A stretch of 64,000 bases of DNA from Escherichia phage vB_Ec-G1. This document shows positions 25,847 through 50,695 of the stretch, piece after piece. The notes below the pieces were generated by a model, which was not told the DNA's origin, searched no databases, and saw only the letters and a program-made list of their open reading frames with translations. Where the stretch lies: the sequence record PQ433349.1; one strand, written 5' to 3'. Every line of letters begins with the position of its first letter. Position 1 is the first letter of the stretch. The translations under genes were made by a program, and so were the position numbers.

Positions 25847-26051
25847 TGTTAATCTCCTCTTCATATGTTGGTAGTGCATGGTATGCGATCACAGGTGCCA
25901 AGTCAAAATAAAAATGACCATTGATAACAGCTATCGTGCCATTGCGTGTTTTGTTAACTTCACAGAATCCCTTCTTGCCGTTTGCCATGATTACAAGCCA
26001 CTCTCCGATAGGAACATCCTCGGTACCAGATACTTTAATCCATCCACTCAC
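25839..26051 (-). CDS. small hypothetical protein (70 aa)
   Basis: Track ORF. Confidence 0.45.
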   Translation of the reverse strand: MSGWIKVSGTEDVPIGEWLVIMANGKKGFCEVNKTRNGTIAVINGHFYFDLAPVIAYHALPTYEEEINNG

Positions 26052-26305
26052 TTTACTTCCCCTTTGTAATCGGACACTATACCAGGCCTTACTTTTGCCT
26101 TAAGATGTTTCAACTCTACCATAGGAGTTGCCACTTGTATAGGGCTAACTTCAACCTTGTAGATAGTATATTCATAAGTCGCATATTTACCTATGGAATG
26201 CAAATACTTAATTGCGTGTTCAGGGGAATCTGCTTCAACATACCCTAAATCTTTCGTAGTACGACCTTCGGTATCGCCTTCAGTGGTTACGTGATAAAGT
26301 GTCAT
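26048..26305 (-). CDS. hypothetical protein (85 aa)
   Basis: Track ORF. Confidence 0.5.
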   Translation of the reverse strand: MTLYHVTTEGDTEGRTTKDLGYVEADSPEHAIKYLHSIGKYATYEYTIYKVEVSPIQVATPMVELKHLKAKVRPGIVSDYKGEVK

Positions 26306-26625
26306 AAAACCTCCTTCTGGTTGGCTGCTTCAATCATAACGTTAAGAGTCTCCATACCGCTTTCAACTGCTTGAGCAATCTCTTGGAACACTGTTTTCTT
26401 AAAGATGTATAAAGATCCTGCCTGTAAGCGTTGCACACAGCATAAGAGGGTTTGGTGATCCATAACAAAGTCTCCATAAGCACAATCAATTTTCCCTGTG
26501 ATTGGGTTGTCTCGTGAGCGAGGATCGTATTCTAATGTGATATGCGTTACACCAGGTAAAGTAACAAACTGACAACGGATGTTGACACGTGGTGCAATTG
26601 ACACGCTAAACAAACTGTTTGACAT
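26302..26625 (-). CDS. hypothetical protein (107 aa)
   Basis: Track ORF. Confidence 0.5.
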   Translation of the reverse strand: MSNSLFSVSIAPRVNIRCQFVTLPGVTHITLEYDPRSRDNPITGKIDCAYGDFVMDHQTLLCCVQRLQAGSLYIFKKTVFQEIAQAVESGMETLNVMIEAANQKEVL

Positions 26626-26772
26626 TTAAACCTCCTCGTAGTAAGGCAAAGCTTTGATCAGCTGTTCTGAAGTGCCATTCTCTGTCCATGTAACCCCGTT
26701 GTCAAGAGAAACATACCCTTTCTTATCGATAAATTTACGGAGACAACCAGTGAACTTGTTTTTGTAGATCAT
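26626..26772 (-). CDS. small hypothetical protein (~48 aa)
   Basis: Below track cut-off; ATGA-type start/stop overlap with upstream gene and abuts downstream start. Confidence 0.3.
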   Translation of the reverse strand: MIYKNKFTGCLRKFIDKKGYVSLDNGVTWTENGTSEQLIKALPYYEEV

Positions 26773-27212
26773 TTCTTCTTTCCTTTCTTTAATTTGTTGT
26801 GACCTTTACCCTTATAAAGCTTGTGATTACGAGCAGATGGGTTATTTTGGTTCTCCAGTCGGCTAACAGGTGTATTCCAAAGATTTCCTGCTACAAAAGA
26901 TGCTGCCACAAGTTCTTCCAGGTATACAAAATCCAAAGCAGGTATCTTTGTTTCCCTCATCTTGCGTTCTACATTAGACAACACGCCTTCTTCCTTACTG
27001 TCTTCTTTTTCAATTACAGACCAACCCTCTTCCTGCCAAGCTTCCCCTCTGAACCAAGTTTCCATGTTATAACCTTGTTCGTCGAGAATAACACCATCTC
27101 GCATCTCAAACCATTCGCCACCACAAAAATGGCGGTGCTCAACACGTCTACCTTCCTTCATTGCTTCTTTAGCTTCGGGCCAAGTCAGTTTGATGTTTTG
27201 GATGTTTTGCAT
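26769..27212 (-). CDS. hypothetical protein (147 aa), first gene of the minus-strand block
   Basis: Track ORF; basic C-terminus. Confidence 0.5.
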   Translation of the reverse strand: MQNIQNIKLTWPEAKEAMKEGRRVEHRHFCGGEWFEMRDGVILDEQGYNMETWFRGEAWQEEGWSVIEKEDSKEEGVLSNVERKMRETKIPALDFVYLEELVAASFVAGNLWNTPVSRLENQNNPSARNHKLYKGKGHNKLKKGKKK

Positions 27213-27273
27213 TTGTTTTCTCCTTTTGTTTGGTAGGAGTTGATCTTAACAAGATTAAAAAGTATGTCAATAC

Positions 27274-27301
27274 TTGATCTGAAATTATTTTCAGGTATCA
27301 T
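27274..27301 (+). promoter_or_regulatory. sigma70-like promoter at the divergent switch region
   Basis: TTGATC -35 and TATCAT -10 about 16 bp apart, upstream of first plus-strand gene. Confidence 0.35.
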
Positions 27302-27326
27302 GTATGAACATTAACAAGAGAGGTAG

Positions 27327-27620
27327 ATGATGAACATTACTTTAGCAACTAAGAATATTTCTGAAACAATTAACGGTTTTGGTGTGATTGTAGCCTTGCA
27401 CGGTAACAATGAGAAATGGTTGGCTTCTTTTGAAGAGGATCGTCAACACAACATTATTTTAGATGCCCCTATAAAAGTTATGCATATCGTTGGTGAAAGC
27501 AAAGTGCTCACTTCCTCCCGTTCAAAAGAACAAATTACAAATGAATTAGTAAAACTGCTTGACAATGTTCTTAACATGTTTGATAATGCACCCATCGATA
27601 CAAAACGTGTCTTAATGTGA
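27327..27620 (+). CDS. hypothetical protein (97 aa)
   Basis: Track ORF, first plus-strand gene. Confidence 0.5.
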   Translation: MMNITLATKNISETINGFGVIVALHGNNEKWLASFEEDRQHNIILDAPIKVMHIVGESKVLTSSRSKEQITNELVKLLDNVLNMFDNAPIDTKRVLM

Positions 27621-27632
27621 GAGGAGAACAAA

Positions 27633-27920
27633 ATGTACTATTCACAAGACGAAGCAGCAAACATTAAACTGGCAGTTGGCGATCTTATTGTGTCACCTAA
27701 CTACCATTGGGATAACACAGATTTGGTTGAAGTAGTAACTCATGTTGGGTTTGAGGGTGTTGTGCTCTACACACTGGGTGGAGGTGTTGTTGGGGAAATG
27801 GAACGTTATACAACAACGAAGAAACTGGTAAGCTCTTATCGCATGTTTTTACACCAAGGTTCGGAAGAGTATACAGCTTTCTTGTTGAAATTAGATGCAG
27901 ATCGGGAGAAGGCACGATGA
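27633..27920 (+). CDS. hypothetical protein (95 aa)
   Basis: Track ORF with GAGGAG RBS. Confidence 0.5.
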   Translation: MYYSQDEAANIKLAVGDLIVSPNYHWDNTDLVEVVTHVGFEGVVLYTLGGGVVGEMERYTTTKKLVSSYRMFLHQGSEEYTAFLLKLDADREKAR

Positions 27921-28273
27921 AAATTGTACACGATGAAATTCAAATAGAAGAAAGTGACCTGATGGATTTGGATGCAGTTTTGGGGAAGGTAATCTATGCA
28001 GGAATTAAAGCCTTCCGTGAGAAGGCAAACAATAGCACGTTTGTCATGATCCCCACTAAACTGATGCGTGTTTTGTATCCAAATAGAAGTGCGTCGTATA
28101 CAGATGAAGAAGAGGAGACAGGTAGAAGAGAGTGGTTAAATATTTTAGAAAAGATGGAGAATGCTTTTATTGATAGTGGTAATCCAGAAATCGTGTATGC
28201 TGAAGATCAAAGGAAGGCACGGTTAGAGGGCCGTCTTTTATTCGCTAGTTATTTTGATAATCTTTGGAGCTAA
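27917..28273 (+). CDS. hypothetical protein (118 aa)
   Basis: Track ORF. Confidence 0.5.
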   Translation: MKIVHDEIQIEESDLMDLDAVLGKVIYAGIKAFREKANNSTFVMIPTKLMRVLYPNRSASYTDEEEETGRREWLNILEKMENAFIDSGNPEIVYAEDQRKARLEGRLLFASYFDNLWS

Positions 28274-28275
28274 AT

Positions 28276-28452
28276 ATGTCTGAATTCTTCATAATGGCTT
28301 TCTTAGGGATCTATCTGATTATTAGTGCTGTTGGCTTAATCATGTCTCTAATAGAGGAAATGGGAATTAAGTGGAATTGTGCATTCGGTATAGCTCTTAT
28401 GCTCACTCCAGTTTGGATCTACATTTGCAAATCGGTTGAACTAATTGGTTAA
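28276..28452 (+). CDS. small membrane protein
   Basis: Trimmed to ATG after GGAG RBS; two hydrophobic helices. Confidence 0.4.
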   Translation: MSEFFIMAFLGIYLIISAVGLIMSLIEEMGIKWNCAFGIALMLTPVWIYICKSVELIG

Positions 28453-28462
28453 TGGAGGTAAT

Positions 28463-28801
28463 ATGTTTAGTAAAGAAATGAGAGAGGTGATCGCTACTCT
28501 GGTAGTTGATCATGGTGTTGAAGTTGAGCGTCACGTTTGGAAAGACGAGCCTCCTTTCTTTGATTTGGCATCACGGGCTAAAAGTCACATGTATCTCCTT
28601 GAAGATGATAAGGATTTTATTCTGCGTATGCGTTATGATCGAGAGTTTAGAATTCCTCTTGACACAGATCCTGATGATGTAGTATTGTGGTTGGCAGAGC
28701 ATTTCGCATTTAACGCTCTACATGGAAGAAGTTTTGGTAATGAACGTTGGGATACCATTTGTCGTAAACATAATATTGAACCAGAATACGGGAGTATGTA
28801 G
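28463..28801 (+). CDS. hypothetical protein
   Basis: Trimmed to ATG after GGAGGT RBS. Confidence 0.5.
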   Translation: MFSKEMREVIATLVVDHGVEVERHVWKDEPPFFDLASRAKSHMYLLEDDKDFILRMRYDREFRIPLDTDPDDVVLWLAEHFAFNALHGRSFGNERWDTICRKHNIEPEYGSM

Positions 28802-29052
28802 TGTTAAGTATCAAACCTAAAATGATTACTGAAGATCAAAAAGATTACATTTATAAATGTGGTCGGGTGTGGAAAGAATACACTAAAGGTAATGAAGTTA
28901 TTGTAGTTACGGAACATGCTATTTCTTTATCAGATCTTTTTGGTGATTATTTGCAAGTCATTAAAATTGGTATTGACAGAGGTTTGGTGCAGGTGTTAAC
29001 ATTATCCCAAGTTGAAGCAGAACACTTAGACAAAATCATTGTCGAGTTCTAA
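28801..29052 (+). CDS. hypothetical protein (83 aa)
   Basis: Track ORF (GTG start). Confidence 0.4.
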   Translation: MLSIKPKMITEDQKDYIYKCGRVWKEYTKGNEVIVVTEHAISLSDLFGDYLQVIKIGIDRGLVQVLTLSQVEAEHLDKIIVEF

Positions 29053-43672: not shown

Positions 43673-43692
43673 GATTATACAAGGGGCGCACT

Positions 43693-43720
43693 AAGCGCCC
43701 TTTATTTTTGCCCGAACAAT
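43693..43720 (+). terminator. rho-independent terminator closing the cassette array
   Basis: AGGGGCGC-acta-AGCGCCCT hairpin followed by TTATTTTTG. Confidence 0.65.
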
Positions 43721-44688
43721 GTTGATAGCTTAAACCTATGAAAAACCGACACAGAACAAAATTGCATAATTTGCGCTATCGAGCTAATCAACCATTAAAC
43801 GAATAACCATACATCCCAGGGAAACAGGTTGTTAGAGAGCTATTTAGAGCGGTTAAAATCGATCTACAACCAACAACAAACCATCAAAAACACCCTTTTA
43901 CCTCCTTTCTAGTGCAATGATAACCATTATCATCTACCTATGATTATCTATTCAATATAAGTGCATAACTATAATGTTGATAATAGTTCGCAACAACTAA
44001 CCCACCAACAACCTAAAACAATAAGCAAACTAATCATAATCAAAGGAATAATAGCAAGATGATTGATAACGACAAACAATCAAACCATGATGAATATTAA
44101 GCAAGATAACGATAACACGACAAAACAACCAACTAACGAACAATAACAAACGAAACCATTAAAAGATCAACTATTAGCAAAATAGTGCCTATTGCCATAA
44201 TAGTGACTTAATGAAATCATTACAAAATGAATCATTCCAAGGATCATCATTAGCACGCTACGCCGGACACGTAGCGAGCTAATAATAAGCCAACTACACC
44301 CCAACAATCATAACCATCGGTGACGGTTATTTCTTGTTACTGCGTAGCTTGCAATAATTGCAAGCGTAATGACGCTTACACTTATTGCGCTGGCTTATTA
44401 TTAGCATTATATGTAATTACCAAGATCATAACATTAGCGCAATAACAATAATCATTGTGGTAATTACAAGATGAAATCATTAGCAAGATGAATAATTGCA
44501 CGTAGCAACATGAGCGAATAGCGACAGGTTGCATAGTGTGCACATAGTGTATAAACATACAAGAAAATAAAGGCTAATCTTTTGGGGGCGAATACTATCG
44601 CGTAGCGATATGTTGAGCACCTTCTCTTAAACGTAAATAAAATCAGAAAATTCTTGATTTATTTTAGTTTTTATGTTAATAAACGTTT

Positions 44689-44709
44689 AAATAATAATCA
44701 TTCTCATAT
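44689..44709. promoter_or_regulatory. Fur-box-like operator site
   Basis: AAATAATAATCATTCTCATAT resembles the sites at 33541-33620. Confidence 0.35.
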
Positions 44710-44867
44710 AAATAATAGTCTGCTTGTCATGAGCGGGATTAGTTGACATTGTTCCGTCATATGATGAAGTTGCCAAACCATTGATAAATAAGTGTTTGTG
44801 TGATTTATAATCAAGTGGCCCACCTTGTCGCTATGTTGGCATGAGCCTTGCATAAGTCATTGAATAC

Positions 44868-44888
44868 GAATGATAATTATTCTCATTC
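44868..44888. promoter_or_regulatory. Fur-box-like near-perfect palindrome
   Basis: GAATGATAAT-T-ATTCTCATTC, 10-1-10 inverted repeat with one mismatch. Confidence 0.45.
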
Positions 44889-45228
44889 GCATGATATTTG
44901 GGAATTGTCGCTGCGTGGACCTGACGGCCCGAAAATTCGCGTTAAGCACTTCTTACGTATGCGCCATGATTTTTGCCATATGATATTGATTCTATTAGAT
45001 ATTCTTGCCATGATTGCCATGAAACAGGGTGTCCCGAAATAATCTCTCCCCGTAGATATTTTGGGTTACTTTTTATACAAGAGTGGGGTGTCAAAAATAA
45101 TCGGTATATATGGGATAATTGATAGGAATCCCCTATGATAATTCGATTGTAATTCCCTAAGATTGATCGTATGATGTTGGTGATTGATGATTGCCATGAA
45201 AGATGGCTAACGATGAGAGGAGATTGTC

Positions 45229-45603
45229 ATGCAAGAGAGTAAAAATGTTCCGTTGAGTAGTGCAACATTGCTTCGCTTCTATAAAGCATGGATTGCCAAC
45301 TATCCTGCAATGAATCGCACAACGAGTGGCTTATGTGGTTGTCTGGTAGATTATGTAAATGATTTTGTTGGTGAGACAACCAGAGAAGAAGATAGAAGAT
45401 GGCGGGATAGTTTGTTGGACCGTTTGAAATATGAAATGAGGAAACAATTTACATGTGCAGGGCTGGACTATAATCTTCCGTTCAATGCAGATTGCATGGA
45501 TTACCTTTCAGAGTGTATAAACTTGGCGTGTCATACCAACACGTTACGTCTTCAGTGGGTGAAAGACAGAATTGAAGATGCAAATAATGCTTGCATTGAA
45601 TAA
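45229..45603 (+). CDS. hypothetical protein, member of 5-copy paralog family
   Basis: 124 aa; shares FY..W...GLC, LPF and R..WVKDR pattern with four other ORFs. Confidence 0.55.
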   Translation: MQESKNVPLSSATLLRFYKAWIANYPAMNRTTSGLCGCLVDYVNDFVGETTREEDRRWRDSLLDRLKYEMRKQFTCAGLDYNLPFNADCMDYLSECINLACHTNTLRLQWVKDRIEDANNACIE

Positions 45604-45652: not shown

Positions 45653-45862
45653 ATGAAGAATTTGAAAACTGTCACAATGTTCTTGACTGATCCTACACGT
45701 GTGCAAGCACTGGCTAAAGCCAGCCGTGTAGCTGTAGAATTCCAAAACTTTAAGCCGTCCGTTGTGACAGGCAGTGAAACGTGTGTTATCGATTTCATTA
45801 ACGAATACTTCCGAGGGAATCCGGTTGGTCGTTACTTCATTAAGGGTCTAAAGGATGCATAA
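45653..45862 (+). CDS. hypothetical protein (69 aa)
   Basis: Track ORF with GAGGAG RBS. Confidence 0.5.
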   Translation: MKNLKTVTMFLTDPTRVQALAKASRVAVEFQNFKPSVVTGSETCVIDFINEYFRGNPVGRYFIKGLKDA

Positions 45863-45863
45863 C

Positions 45864-46085
45864 ATGAAACGCATGAAAATTCGTATTGAGAATGATGGTG
45901 GTTATAAAGGATTGGCACATGCAAAATTTCCACTTGTGCTGGAAGCTACGGTGGAATACAGTGGGCTTGCTCATGTGCGATTCTCGAAGATGATGGAAGT
46001 GCAGGAATGGTTTTGGGACGAGATAGATGCACGAGAAGGGGAAGATTATGTTTTCCTTCCTCACGAATATGAAATTGTTTATTAA
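45864..46085 (+). CDS. hypothetical protein, paralog of 50474..50695
   Basis: Track ORF trimmed to ATG; shares MKIR..., EWF(W/E), EG.DYVF motifs. Confidence 0.5.
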   Translation: MKRMKIRIENDGGYKGLAHAKFPLVLEATVEYSGLAHVRFSKMMEVQEWFWDEIDAREGEDYVFLPHEYEIVY

Positions 46086-46097
46086 AGGTTGTGTGCA

Positions 46098-46337
46098 ATG
46101 ATCACACCACAACAGAATGAAGCAGCAATGGATCTTCTTGATAGTTTGTATTTCGATAATTGGTACTCTGAATGTGAATGGATGAATATGCAAACTCTGA
46201 AAGAGAAGACAAAAGCGTTGATTACAGTAGATCAATTTCTTGCAGAGACGGAAAGAATGAATTATGATATGGTATCTCGCGCACGACGCGTTTCCATTTT
46301 CAATAAAATGTTAGCATTATGGGGAGGTAGAAAATGA
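46098..46337 (+). CDS. hypothetical protein
   Basis: Track ORF 46089..46337 trimmed to first ATG. Confidence 0.5.
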   Translation: MITPQQNEAAMDLLDSLYFDNWYSECEWMNMQTLKEKTKALITVDQFLAETERMNYDMVSRARRVSIFNKMLALWGGRK

Positions 46338-46795
46338 GACAACCATCTATACTGGAAGCGCATGTGCAATGTGTTGTAGATTATGTCAAAGAACACTCAA
46401 GTTTGTTGAATGTAACCTGTGCAGTGCAAAACGATGTAGGTATTGTCTGTGTGCAACATATCTTATCTGAAACTCGTTATGAAGTATTTCGTGCCACGTT
46501 GTTTGGATGTGATCGAGTGCATGTAAACTTCCTGGACTCCAATTATCGTTATGCTTTAGAAAATATTGATGATTATCTTCCTTGCTCTCCGACAGGATAT
46601 GTAATGGTAACAGCAAACGAAGTAACACCGAGCAACAGTGAACAGGAAGCTTTGTTACGGAAGAAAATACGCCAACTGCAAGTGTTGAATGAACTGAAAG
46701 AAGAGATTGAAAAAGAACTAAAAGAAGATTTTGGTATGCTTCCAAAAGACGCTTTGAAATGGTATGATGAGTTAGGAGGAGAGAACAATGTTTAA
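46334..46795 (+). CDS. hypothetical protein (153 aa)
   Basis: Track ORF. Confidence 0.55.
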   Translation: MRQPSILEAHVQCVVDYVKEHSSLLNVTCAVQNDVGIVCVQHILSETRYEVFRATLFGCDRVHVNFLDSNYRYALENIDDYLPCSPTGYVMVTANEVTPSNSEQEALLRKKIRQLQVLNELKEEIEKELKEDFGMLPKDALKWYDELGGENNV

Positions 46796-47246
46796 AGAAG
46801 GTCATGTCTACCGTTTCCAGGATGAGGATTATATGCGATTATATTCTACCTTTGATAACAGTATTGCTGCTATCATTGGAGAGAATTTTTTCGAGGTGTT
46901 GAGCACTGATGCAAATGGTAATATCTTGTCAATGGTTGTGATAGGTATGAGAGATGGTATTATCACTGCTAGTGATGGGGATCGTTACATAATCAATTCT
47001 GCTCATATAGATTATTTTGTTGACGGCGGTGTTCGTGGTGGTCGTGGAAAACCACAAGAAGAACCTATTGATAAAACAAAAGAAGAGTGGTATGTTGTAA
47101 TGACTGGTGACACGTGTATTTCTGGATCTCAAAGTTATGAAGAAGCTTTGAAAGAGGCAGCAGAGCATAAAATGTCTAATCCTACCGAAGAGGTTGAAGT
47201 TTATAAACGTTTGGTTGTTGCTACCATCGGCGTATCTTTTGTTTAA
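46788..47246 (+). CDS. hypothetical protein, tandem MFK-family paralog 1
   Basis: 152 aa; N-terminal MFKEGHVYRF and C-terminal EEALKEA...VEVYKRLVVATIG shared with next gene. Confidence 0.55.
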   Translation: MFKEGHVYRFQDEDYMRLYSTFDNSIAAIIGENFFEVLSTDANGNILSMVVIGMRDGIITASDGDRYIINSAHIDYFVDGGVRGGRGKPQEEPIDKTKEEWYVVMTGDTCISGSQSYEEALKEAAEHKMSNPTEEVEVYKRLVVATIGVSFV

Positions 47247-47258
47247 AAGGGGAATGTT

Positions 47259-48044
47259 ATGTTTAAAGTAGGTTTTGTTTATAATTTCAAATCGGAAGAT
47301 ACCAAAAATAATTTTGGTAAAGCTAGTATTCGTAACGCTTTCTTTGTAGGTTGCATTCAAGACAGTAAATTTAAAGTTTTGGATGTTGATTTTCTTGGTT
47401 CTGTGTCCAAGGTGAAGGTATTAGACACAAATAAAATCATCGAAGGTGGTTCTGGGCTTTTCCCTGAAGGTTATAAGCTTGTAAGTTGTATGGATTATGC
47501 TCGTTTTGAAGAACATACCCCTGAAGATTATGAAGATTCTCCTACAGGGGGCTGTGTCTTTGTAGAAGGTGGTGTCTATAAGTTTGCAAGTGAACAAGAT
47601 CGTAAGCTTTTCGCCAATTATATTGACGGCGGACAAACGACAAACAATGTAAACCGAAAAATTTCCGATCTTATTGGCGATGATCCTTTCGTGATCACAA
47701 AGATGGTTGGACAAGATGTAACAGCAATCCGTAGGCTTGTATGTAATACAAATCATGTAGCAGGTGAAGGCTGGTTCAAGGAAGCTTGTGCACTGCTAAT
47801 CAAAAGTGATAACCCTTATTTTAAAAATATTAAAGATGCTGTTGAGCCTAAACAAGAGGAACCCGCAGCGAATTTTAAACACTATGCTATTGTTAAAGGT
47901 ATGAATGTCCAACTGGTGTCACATTCTTACGAAGAGATCGCCACAGAAGCAAAAAAGATGAAGGAAGAATACCCAATTTCTACTGTTGAGATCTATGAGC
48001 GTATTGGTGTTGTTACTATTGAGCCTACTGCGGTAATAAAATAA
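47259..48044 (+). CDS. hypothetical protein, tandem MFK-family paralog 2
   Basis: 261 aa; MFKVGFVYNF start and YEEIATEA...VEIYERIGVVTIEP C-terminus. Confidence 0.55.
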   Translation: MFKVGFVYNFKSEDTKNNFGKASIRNAFFVGCIQDSKFKVLDVDFLGSVSKVKVLDTNKIIEGGSGLFPEGYKLVSCMDYARFEEHTPEDYEDSPTGGCVFVEGGVYKFASEQDRKLFANYIDGGQTTNNVNRKISDLIGDDPFVITKMVGQDVTAIRRLVCNTNHVAGEGWFKEACALLIKSDNPYFKNIKDAVEPKQEEPAANFKHYAIVKGMNVQLVSHSYEEIATEAKKMKEEYPISTVEIYERIGVVTIEPTAVIK

Positions 48045-48053
48045 GGAGTTATT

Positions 48054-48491
48054 ATGTTCAAAGTTAATGCTGTTTACTGTTTCAAAAGTAAAGCTGCCTG
48101 TGAAGCTTTCTCTATGATCTCTGATGAAAATTTCAAAATGGCAGCTTTGATTGAAGGGTCTTGTTTCCGCGTCGAGGATGTTAGTGAATCAGGGTCTGTT
48201 TGCTCATTGACTTTATTGGACAGCGGGGATATTATTGAAGCTGGACAGTATCCGTTCAGAAGTTGGGAGATATTGTTAGCTCGCGGAGAGCGTAACTTTT
48301 TTATGTGCGTGTCTGCGGGGGAAGTTGTGAAAGAAACTAAGGATGTTTCTGTTTACAATTCTGAATTTATAAGTTATAGTGAGTATCAACATCTGGAAGG
48401 CATTGTTGGTCACTTGTTATCTCTGATTGACATTGAATGTGACCTGCCTGAATCATTGAAAGAAGAGTTGAAAGCATTAGATCTGTTATAA
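48054..48491 (+). CDS. hypothetical protein, tandem MFK-family paralog 3
   Basis: 145 aa; MFKVNAVYCF start. Confidence 0.55.
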   Translation: MFKVNAVYCFKSKAACEAFSMISDENFKMAALIEGSCFRVEDVSESGSVCSLTLLDSGDIIEAGQYPFRSWEILLARGERNFFMCVSAGEVVKETKDVSVYNSEFISYSEYQHLEGIVGHLLSLIDIECDLPESLKEELKALDLL

Positions 48492-48518
48492 TGTTTCGCA
48501 CAACGAAAGGAGAATAAG

Positions 48519-48818
48519 ATGAATCTGACCGAACAGTTACGCCGTATTGCAAAAGAAGCTTCCTTCAACTTCCCTGTTGAAGAAGTGATTGAGACATGTT
48601 TTGCTGAAGCACGAGCGGGAAACTCTTCAAGAAATTTCACGCCATCTGATTTTGGTCTGGATAATTCCCCTACCCACCCAGGGGAGATCTACAATCAGGT
48701 GAAGTGGATGGATGAAGCAGTAGCAATTCTTCGTGAGCGTGGGCTTATTGTTTATAAAGAAATGGATCTGAACGGGGCATACGAGTGGATCACTATTGAT
48801 TGGTCGGAGGTGAAATAA
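48519..48818 (+). CDS. hypothetical protein (99 aa)
   Basis: Track ORF with AAGGAGA RBS. Confidence 0.55.
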   Translation: MNLTEQLRRIAKEASFNFPVEEVIETCFAEARAGNSSRNFTPSDFGLDNSPTHPGEIYNQVKWMDEAVAILRERGLIVYKEMDLNGAYEWITIDWSEVK

Positions 48819-49027
48819 TGGTTACTATCACGTTGACAGTTACACAAGAGCAAGCAGAAGAATTACGTGATGCACTGGCATATATGGGACGCTGTTATTA
48901 TATGCCTCACAAATCTCAAGATGTTTTTGCTACAGCCGTTGAGAAAGCTTTAAACAAATACCGAGAAACTCATGCCGTTCCTAAAGTATCAGCAGAAGAG
49001 TTTGGCACTTGGCACGAAGTTCACTGA
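48818..49027 (+). CDS. hypothetical protein
   Basis: Track ORF 48800..49027 trimmed to ATG after GGAGGTG RBS. Confidence 0.5.
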   Translation: MVTITLTVTQEQAEELRDALAYMGRCYYMPHKSQDVFATAVEKALNKYRETHAVPKVSAEEFGTWHEVH

Positions 49028-49763: not shown

Positions 49764-50078
49764 ATGTCAGAAGAACTTAAAGAATTTTATCAGGCATATC
49801 ATAACTGGCTGTTAGCTGGTGCTCCAGATAATAATCCTTTCTGGCATGATAAAGGATTATGTAGTTGCCTCTACCTTTGGACTGGAGGTTATGATGATCT
49901 AAATTATGAAATGCAAATGCAATTCCGTGAGGCAGGATTGTCTGAAGAATACCCGTTTGATGACGGAGACTGGTTTAAATATGATTTTGCACAAAGAAAC
50001 GGGCTGCTACATTTAAATGCTGCCCGTATAAAATGGGTAAAAGATCATGCTACACAGGAGGATGTGCAATGCCTATAG
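49764..50078 (+). CDS. hypothetical protein, member of 5-copy paralog family
   Basis: 104 aa; FYQAYHNWL...GLCSCL...R..WVKD pattern. Confidence 0.55.
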   Translation: MSEELKEFYQAYHNWLLAGAPDNNPFWHDKGLCSCLYLWTGGYDDLNYEMQMQFREAGLSEEYPFDDGDWFKYDFAQRNGLLHLNAARIKWVKDHATQEDVQCL

Positions 50079-50473: not shown

Positions 50474-50695
50474 ATGAAAATTAGAGTTTGTGATGTATTG
50501 GGTTATGTTGGTTTTGAGAATGTTCAGATTCCTTTTGTTGTTGAAGCACATCTTGTTAGTGAGGATATGACAACATTCTTTGTTACGATAGAAGAAATGT
50601 CTAAAGTTGAGGGATGGGAGTGGTTTGAAGAAGATGTTTGGGAAGGTTGTGATTACGTATTTTTCTCTGACGAAGTGAATGTTCTTGCGGAGTAG
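50474..50695 (+). CDS. hypothetical protein, paralog of 45864..46085
   Basis: Track ORF; shared motifs. Confidence 0.5.
   Translation: MKIRVCDVLGYVGFENVQIPFVVEAHLVSEDMTTFFVTIEEMSKVEGWEWFEEDVWEGCDYVFFSDEVNVLAE

Follow-up and report, generated by a model that had tools for sequence, protein, structure and literature searches.

The role of phage T4 GoF (ComC-alpha), mutants of which rescue T4 on rho-defective hosts, has been puzzling since the 1970s. Together with Frd.2 and MotB.1, GoF is a founding member of a 'phage LSm-like fold' family of Tevenvirinae early proteins, a grouping not recognised before 2025, and then only for phages of the T4 type (Kim et al. 2025, PMC12152347). In the T4 representatives a flexible linker connects a five-stranded 'LSm-like' barrel at the N-terminus with C-terminal domains that vary; the closest solved neighbours of their barrels are the SH3-like domains of FeoA and IdeR, and conventional BLASTP was reported to show no similarity among these proteins (PMC12152347). 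Here we describe three consecutive genes of Escherichia phage vB_Ec-G1 (sequence record PQ433349.1), a phAPEC8-like Phapecoctavirus of the subfamily Stephanstirmvirinae, which very probably represent old, diverged paralogs of the GoF/Frd.2/MotB.1 family, family identity and mode of evolution being judged jointly. We refer to the three + strand open reading frames (ORFs) at positions 46788-48491 of the analyzed 64-kb stretch (the window) as g1, g2 and g3, and to the three together as the cassette.

The three genes resemble the T4 family in their homologous N-terminal barrel of ~90 amino acids, recognizable by sequence, predicted fold and Protein Data Bank (PDB) neighbours, in the flexible acidic linker leading to a small variable C-terminal domain, in the acidity of the proteins, and in the presence of several paralogs per genome amid small early-type genes; the layout of g3 is essentially that of GoF. 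In contrast to T4, where goF and motB.1 are ~1 kb apart and frd.2 lies ~140 kb away, g1-g3 are strictly adjacent, g2 carries two barrels, and the C module of g1 and g2, a predicted beta-beta-alpha-beta unit, has no detectable sequence similarity to the C-terminal domain of GoF. The Stephanstirmvirinae genome is a further difference and lies outside the stated Tevenvirinae scope of the family, which widens the range of the family and does not exclude membership. The family reaches phages of the phAPEC8/phi92 type, and it forms tandem arrays and multi-barrel proteins. Occurrence outside the Tevenvirinae, the strict tandem arrangement, multi-barrel proteins, the beta-beta-alpha-beta C module and the recombination footprints detailed below are all absent from the 2025 description. 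They extend a known family and reveal no new mechanism.

Modular layout and family membership

The first-pass annotation had placed three consecutive genes at 46788-48491, and all three proved to be + strand ORFs: g1 (46788-47246, 152 amino acids), g2 (47259-48044, 261 amino acids) and g3 (48054-48491, 145 amino acids). An N-terminal module of ~90 amino acids (N module) is common to all of them (BLASTP E 1e-10 to 3e-3; shuffle z 6-14.5). Formal pairwise alignment, which had been proposed as a check, was significant for g2 and g3 (E 1e-10, 42% identity across residues 1-64), for g1 and g2 (E 2e-8, with a second high-scoring segment pair at E 4e-4) and for g1 and g3 (E 0.003). The proposed start motif MFK(E/V)G.VY.F describes g1 (MFKEGHVYRF) and g2 (MFKVGFVYNF) but not g3 (MFKVNAVYCF), where N replaces G. 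A C-terminal segment had also been assigned to the first two genes, and this C module of ~57 amino acids is real, with 19 of 57 positions identical between g1 and g2 (z 9.9 in 1000 shuffles), the last position of its motif being G in g1 and E in g2.

In g1 the barrel occupies approximately residues 1-90 (46788-47057) and the C module approximately residues 96-152 (47073-47243), the hidden Markov model (HMM) calls being residues 1-69 for N and 96-152 for C; the linker between them is rich in Gly, Arg, Pro and Glu. This protein aligns best with residues 100-254 of g2 and not with the g2 N-terminus. Closer examination of g2 revealed that the N module occurs twice, as N1 at residues 1-90 (47259-47528) and as N2 at residues 100-195 (47556-47843), with domain E-values of 5e-34 and 1e-31, followed by the C module at residues 205-261 (47871-48041). 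The length of 261 amino acids given earlier for the middle copy was borne out and is explained by this second N module, which had been overlooked. The layouts are therefore N-C for g1, N-N-C for g2 and N-X for g3, whose barrel spans residues 1-90 (48054-48323). An HMM made from these four N modules found no further copy among the 406 ORFs of the window. Profile E-values for the family domains reached 1e-31 to 1e-36, and in the PHROGs database g1 and g2 both matched phrog_3710 (E 9e-34, and E 1e-41 in two stretches, respectively), with g3 matching phrog_22975 (E 3e-100).

Similarity to the T4 proteins was observed at the sequence level. T4 GoF matched g2 (BLASTP E 6e-8) and g3 (E 2e-4) in alignments running from the GoF N-terminus onto the N module, and a profile built from the window's four modules alone identified GoF as the sole significant ORF in T4 1-14 kb (22 bits, E 8e-7). 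An exhaustive HMMER search of 1.84 billion protein representatives with an N-C profile made only from Phapecoctavirus sequences returned 51 proteins at E ≤ 1e-3. The 58-domain N module HMM built from these hits scored GoF with 53 bits, Frd.2 with 22 bits and MotB.1 with 15 bits, each over the whole domain, and gave no score for six neighbouring T4 proteins included as controls (the T4 sites compared were L009 5842-7650 and L012 3144-3530). One earlier profile search was partly circular, with GoF in the query, and was re-tested with the window-only and Phapecoctavirus-only profiles. PHROGs also contained weak matches to families labelled 'goF mRNA metabolism modulator', and the homologs of g1 and g3 are already labelled goF-like in the record of one relative. 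The 'MFK' family that had been set up as a group of its own is thus better given up, the genes belonging to a family known from T4-like phages, for whose annotation the family N profile is usable. Pfam, NCBIfam and PADLOC held no meaningful match for the three proteins, a word-seeded homolog search with g2 returned only near-identical proteins, a later search from an alignment of 28 sequences became saturated with candidates and contributed little, and a search for related loci on viral contigs confirmed none. A GajA match (E 0.037, 24 residues) was disregarded. P0134 (1959 amino acids, 13 stretches) and P0162 (282 amino acids, 4 stretches) were set aside as spurious, being beta-hairpin repeat proteins that match only profile positions ~33-77.

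AlphaFold2 modelling of g2 with a 33-sequence family alignment (predicted local distance difference test, pLDDT, 82; predicted template modelling score 0.42) yielded three confident domains separated by disordered linkers of low confidence at residues 92-98 and 196-204. The g3 model (pLDDT 80) reached ~95 for residues 1-88 and 43-71 in the tail, where an acidic, disordered linker of low pLDDT at residues 92-105 is followed by two weakly predicted helices (residues 108-125 and 133-141). According to these models the N module is a predicted SH3-like ('LSm-like') beta-barrel of ~90 residues with a two-helix insert, and the C-terminal domains differ, with a predicted beta-beta-alpha-beta unit in g1 and g2 and two predicted helices in g3. 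The predicted barrels show the bent five-stranded antiparallel sheet with FeoA/IdeR-type SH3 domains as nearest solved neighbours, and the PDB fold neighbours comprised FeoA, IdeR and Tudor domains. Searching the viral models of BFVD with Foldseek at E ≤ 1e-3 gave 63 neighbours for g2 and 81 for g3, nearly all of them uncharacterised proteins of T4-like phages and often several per phage. Among these, the 'GoF putative mRNA metabolism modulator' of phage VR7 matched the g3 model at E 7e-6, and this model superposes at 1.2-2.6 A over ~90 columns on dozens of proteins from T4-like phages. The residues conserved in the family belong mostly to the hydrophobic core (Y8, F10, F38, F83), with the addition of N26. 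A PDB sequence search found no solved structure for any family member, and neither the GoF C-terminal domain nor the g3 tail nor a 65-amino-acid ORF of the relatives (see below) had sequence support for similarity to the C module (HMM <0 bits).

Other small SH3-like barrels used for comparison were FeoA, the C-terminal domain of IdeR/DtxR, the Tudor-like domains of UvrD/PcrA/CarD and the KOW domains. FeoA produced no Pfam match at E ≤ 1 and no PDB sequence match; weak fold similarity is its sole link to the barrel, and a reading of the barrel as a FeoA-like or metal-related domain was rejected. The true LSm proteins, Hfq and Sm, share the small bent five-stranded antiparallel sheet, but the canonical arrangement of an N-terminal alpha-helix followed by five bent strands, with Sm motifs and ring oligomers, does not describe the barrels of g1-g3.

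Age of the paralogs and turnover of the cassette

With genes on the same strand and directly adjacent, with 70-77% identity over their first 30 nt and with copy numbers that differ among relatives, the tandem triplication of the first-pass annotation could be taken literally, one ancestral 'MFK' gene having been triplicated recently and within this lineage, with the middle copy expanded afterwards. The DNA-level repeat is, however, limited to these 30 nt, the paralogs share only 20-42% of their amino acids, and the three genes have been kept as distinct orthologs (95-100%) across dozens of Phapecoctavirus genomes. In global alignments (300 shuffles) g2N1, the first barrel of g2, scored z 14.5 with g3N, 6.7 with g1N and 2.4 with g2N2 (g1N-g3N 6.0), compared to 11.4 with the N-terminal domain of T4 GoF. 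Because g2N1 is about as near to T4 GoF as to g3, and nearer to GoF than to g1N or g2N2, the duplications are, judged by sequence, not a lineage-local burst and the paralogs are old. The N-N-C layout also recurs in the distant relative P0124, which is only 28% identical. A recent triplication is therefore very unlikely; what stands is a tandem array of paralogs with varying copy number, and what falls is the local expansion of one gene, given three different architectures and old divergence. The opposite reading, in which chance or composition accounts for the similarity and the ORFs form no family, could draw on the g1/g3 E-value and on the weak score between the two barrels of g2, yet the profile E-values, the significant alignments, the consistent and confident predicted folds and the recovery of members from 1.84 billion proteins leave it a negligible probability, and it was rejected.

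The comparison of copy number across related phages, also proposed earlier, revealed 2-4 family genes in at least seven arrangements within Phapecoctavirus. The invariant member of the cassette is g3, with 95-100% identity in 61 Phapecoctavirus records and present in every one of them, and the genes ahead of it form the variable part. The window shares its arrangement (N-C, N-N-C, N-X) with Schickermooser, AV125 and ev052. The cassettes with two family genes consist of a chimera of the g1 N module and the g2 C module followed by N-X in phAPEC8, of orf65 with N-C and N-X in the 3A1_SA_NWU group, and of orf65 with N-N-C and N-X in ukendt. The WPEC phages carry N*C*, N-C and N-X, to which orf65 is added in Mt1B1_P17, and ESCO37 and ECO340P1 carry orf65, N*C*, N-C, N-N-C and N-X. 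In some relatives the 65-amino-acid ORF and the fourth family gene (N*C*) thus lie between the upstream flank gene and g1; this insert was complete in 20 records, and the double-barrel gene of the g2 type was found in 16 phage records only. One or both of g1 and g2 are absent or fused in viable isolates such as phAPEC8, ukendt and 3A1.

The 65-amino-acid ORF itself (L001 1989-2183 in ESCO37) is not in the window and precedes the cassette in many relatives. Its counterpart in the phi92-like Justusliebigvirus has 84-86% DNA identity and overlaps the annotated Phi92_gp001/gp002.

The origin of the phAPEC8 arrangement could be traced to the nucleotide. The protein phAPEC8_0024 combines the g1 N module with the g2 C module, and in blastn alignments phAPEC8 L003 1901-2257 corresponds to window 46700-47065 and L003 2247-2494 to window 47853-48100, with an 11-nt overlap. 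The left junction lies in the g1 linker (47055-47065, + strand; CAAGAAGAACC, part of K-P-Q-E-E-P) and the right junction in the g2 linker (47853-47863, + strand; CAAGAGGAACC, part of K-Q-E-E-P), and the ~790-bp segment between the two microhomologies is lacking in phAPEC8. This layout arose by recombination at the 11-nt microhomology in the paralogous linkers, which fused the g1 barrel to the g2 C domain. A second chimera, the metagenomic protein P0125 (141 amino acids), joins the N-terminal half of a 76-amino-acid 'MKIRIE' family to the end of the second g2 barrel and the C module, with the junction at '...EGWF...'; its counterpart is window 45855-~46010 fused to ~47780-48041, which implies that ~1.8 kb was deleted in some phage and that the locus bears a second footprint of recombination. 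The present variation among close relatives is the product of recombination, deletion and insertion between existing paralogs, not of fresh duplication, and recombination in the linkers is reshuffling the family among phages that are nearly identical. E. coli phages in therapeutic use thereby offer a natural allelic series, with cassettes of two, three and four genes and one defined chimera.

Arrays and multi-barrel proteins were also observed elsewhere. The proteins P0137 and P0139 are of the N-N-N-C type, P0143 and P0170 combine two N modules with a coiled coil, P0135 is a g3-like N-X protein, and an N-C homolog is present in Justusliebigvirus. The paralogs of phiWec179 are apparently adjacent, as judged by consecutive accessions. 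The largest family expansion found in this analysis was located at L011 2295-7944 on a T4-like metagenomic contig (Logan SRR14300940_297, 71 kb), where five neighbouring genes encode 2+2+3+3+2 = 12 barrels. This array is interleaved with a duplicated pair of genes for 125 and 143 amino acids (45% identity, E 1e-29), and the contig also bears segE, nrdD and I-HmuI-like genes.

Possible functions of the barrel proteins

GoF is an abundant, non-essential early protein that forms dimers, as does MotB.1; GoF(D25Y) stabilises gene 41 mRNA, GoF mutants suppress rho(nusD) restriction, and the analogy to Hfq/Sm has been used to suggest an RNA role for GoF (PMC12152347). By analogy with GoF, g1-g3 would be early, abundant and dispensable host-takeover proteins, whose barrel may serve as a binding module for a component of host RNA metabolism; its ligand might be RNA or a protein, with Rho and the degradosome as examples. 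Specificity and valency could be set by the variable tail and by how many barrels a protein carries, and barrels in tandem might take the place of the dimers described for GoF and MotB.1. Taken as a whole, the explanation favoured here, comprising family identity, cassette turnover and an early role linked to RNA metabolism, appears likely. A role in host or phage RNA metabolism, considered by itself, is a tentative possibility by analogy, favoured because the sole functional evidence for the family is the mRNA stabilisation and rho-defect suppression by gain-of-function GoF. Several observations weigh against it. The RNA effect within the family is confined to the gain-of-function mutant, which makes the transfer of function weak, and a reporter assay showed little effect of GoF and MotB.1 in their wild-type form (PMC12152347). 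The low isoelectric points of g1-g3 (4.4-5.4, with 4.6 for g1 and 4.4 for g3; GoF 4.6) argue against non-specific RNA binding, and no conserved surface site is evident, conservation falling mostly on the hydrophobic core and N26. Early expression is read from position only, and a promoter and terminator scan around the cassette gave no enrichment over shuffled sequence. A literature search for early-gene or transcriptome data on Phapecoctavirus retrieved nothing specific. Since all three proteins are acidic and their conservation is mainly that of a hydrophobic core, a protein target is at least as likely as direct RNA binding.

Members of the same family could have been put to a different use, the cassette being an accessory locus of an arms race, concerned with anti-defence or host range, in which each barrel-plus-tail protein neutralises a different host protein and in which gene gain, loss and shuffling would track the defence repertoire of the hosts. 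The presence/absence variation and chimeras among phages 95-98% identical in DNA, the early-type block of small variable genes with its other paralog pairs, the massive local expansion in another phage and the acidity of the proteins, which suits protein binding or nucleic-acid mimicry, are consistent with such a locus, as are the SH3, Tudor and KOW relatives, which are typically protein-interaction modules. None of the proteins, however, matched PADLOC families or known anti-defence proteins, g3 is near-invariant (95-100% identity), unlike a fast arms-race gene, and the GoF mutants, the sole experimental handle, point to RNA stability and Rho (PMC12152347), which leaves an arms-race locus, the main rival explanation, rather unlikely. 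Quite improbable as well, in our estimate, is that the barrel would be a modular binding unit of tunable valency, present in one to three copies per protein and in as many as twelve at a locus, whose reshuffling with the tails, by recombination in the low-complexity linkers, would supply early proteins that differ in the host factor of RNA metabolism or defence they capture; if true, host takeover would have in this cassette a natural hotspot of domain shuffling, and specificity could be mapped by comparing the natural variants (2-4 genes, chimeras). A more specific idea starts from a structural match of the g1/g2 C module to ClpS and casts this module as a shortened ClpS-like adaptor, through which the N-degron pathway of host ClpAP would be redirected or blocked while the barrel binds the substrate. 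The match covers only about half of the ~80-85-residue ClpS core at 9-16% identity, in contrast to a complete alpha/beta core of ~80 residues with sequence or profile similarity, and designed mini-proteins, SPOR-like and other simple alpha/beta units match the C module at similar Z. A beta-beta-alpha-beta unit of ~45 residues is a generic fold, and because a profile of 13 C modules found only de novo designed proteins in the PDB and no ClpS, the match is not read as homology; such an adaptor is extremely improbable.

Genomic setting of the cassette

The 2.6 kb around the cassette are 97-98% identical to phages ESCO37, Schickermooser and AV125. On the left the cassette is bordered by a conserved non-family gene of 153 amino acids (46334-46795, + strand, phrog_14944), whose stop overlaps the start of g1 by 8 nt, and on the right by a conserved non-family gene of 99 amino acids (48519-48818, + strand, phrog_15686). 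Each of the three genes is preceded by a strong Shine-Dalgarno sequence of its own, that of g1 being AGGAGG at 46774-46779 (+ strand). The gaps between the genes measure 12 nt (g1-g2) and 9 nt (g2-g3), and owing to this tight packing the three are probably co-transcribed. Small unannotated genes, all in one direction, extend over a block of ~35 kb, and the cassette lies close to where this block begins. Such placement is typical of early host-takeover genes.

Two dispersed paralog pairs flank the cassette and keep the same order on either side of it. One consists of 45229-45603 and 49764-50078 (124 and 104 amino acids, 30% identity, E 1e-11), the other of 45855-46085 and 50474-50695 (76 and 73 amino acids, 35% identity, E 2e-12). 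Such an arrangement suggests that the segment of the early region surrounding the GoF-like genes was duplicated long ago. Like g1-g3 these pairs represent old duplications of small early genes with presence/absence variation and recombination between paralogs, but their folds and families are unrelated and only the mode of evolution is comparable.

Ahead of the small-gene block, a gene-poor gap of ~1.5 kb (window ~43700-45200) contains several promoter-like sites, with a strong terminator-like hairpin at 43681-43703, and many deposited relatives number their genomes from this gap, so that the physical end of the genome or the main region of early promoters may be close to it. The GC skew changes from negative to positive at window ~26000-29000, with a cumulative minimum near 27-28 kb, where the genes switch from a minus-strand to a plus-strand block. 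Over window 46300-48900, the records 'Campylobacter phage B15', 'Acinetobacter phage vB_AbaM_ABPW7' and 'Klebsiella phage ZCKP1' share 96-99% identity with E. coli Phapecoctavirus, and the host labels of these deposits look doubtful.

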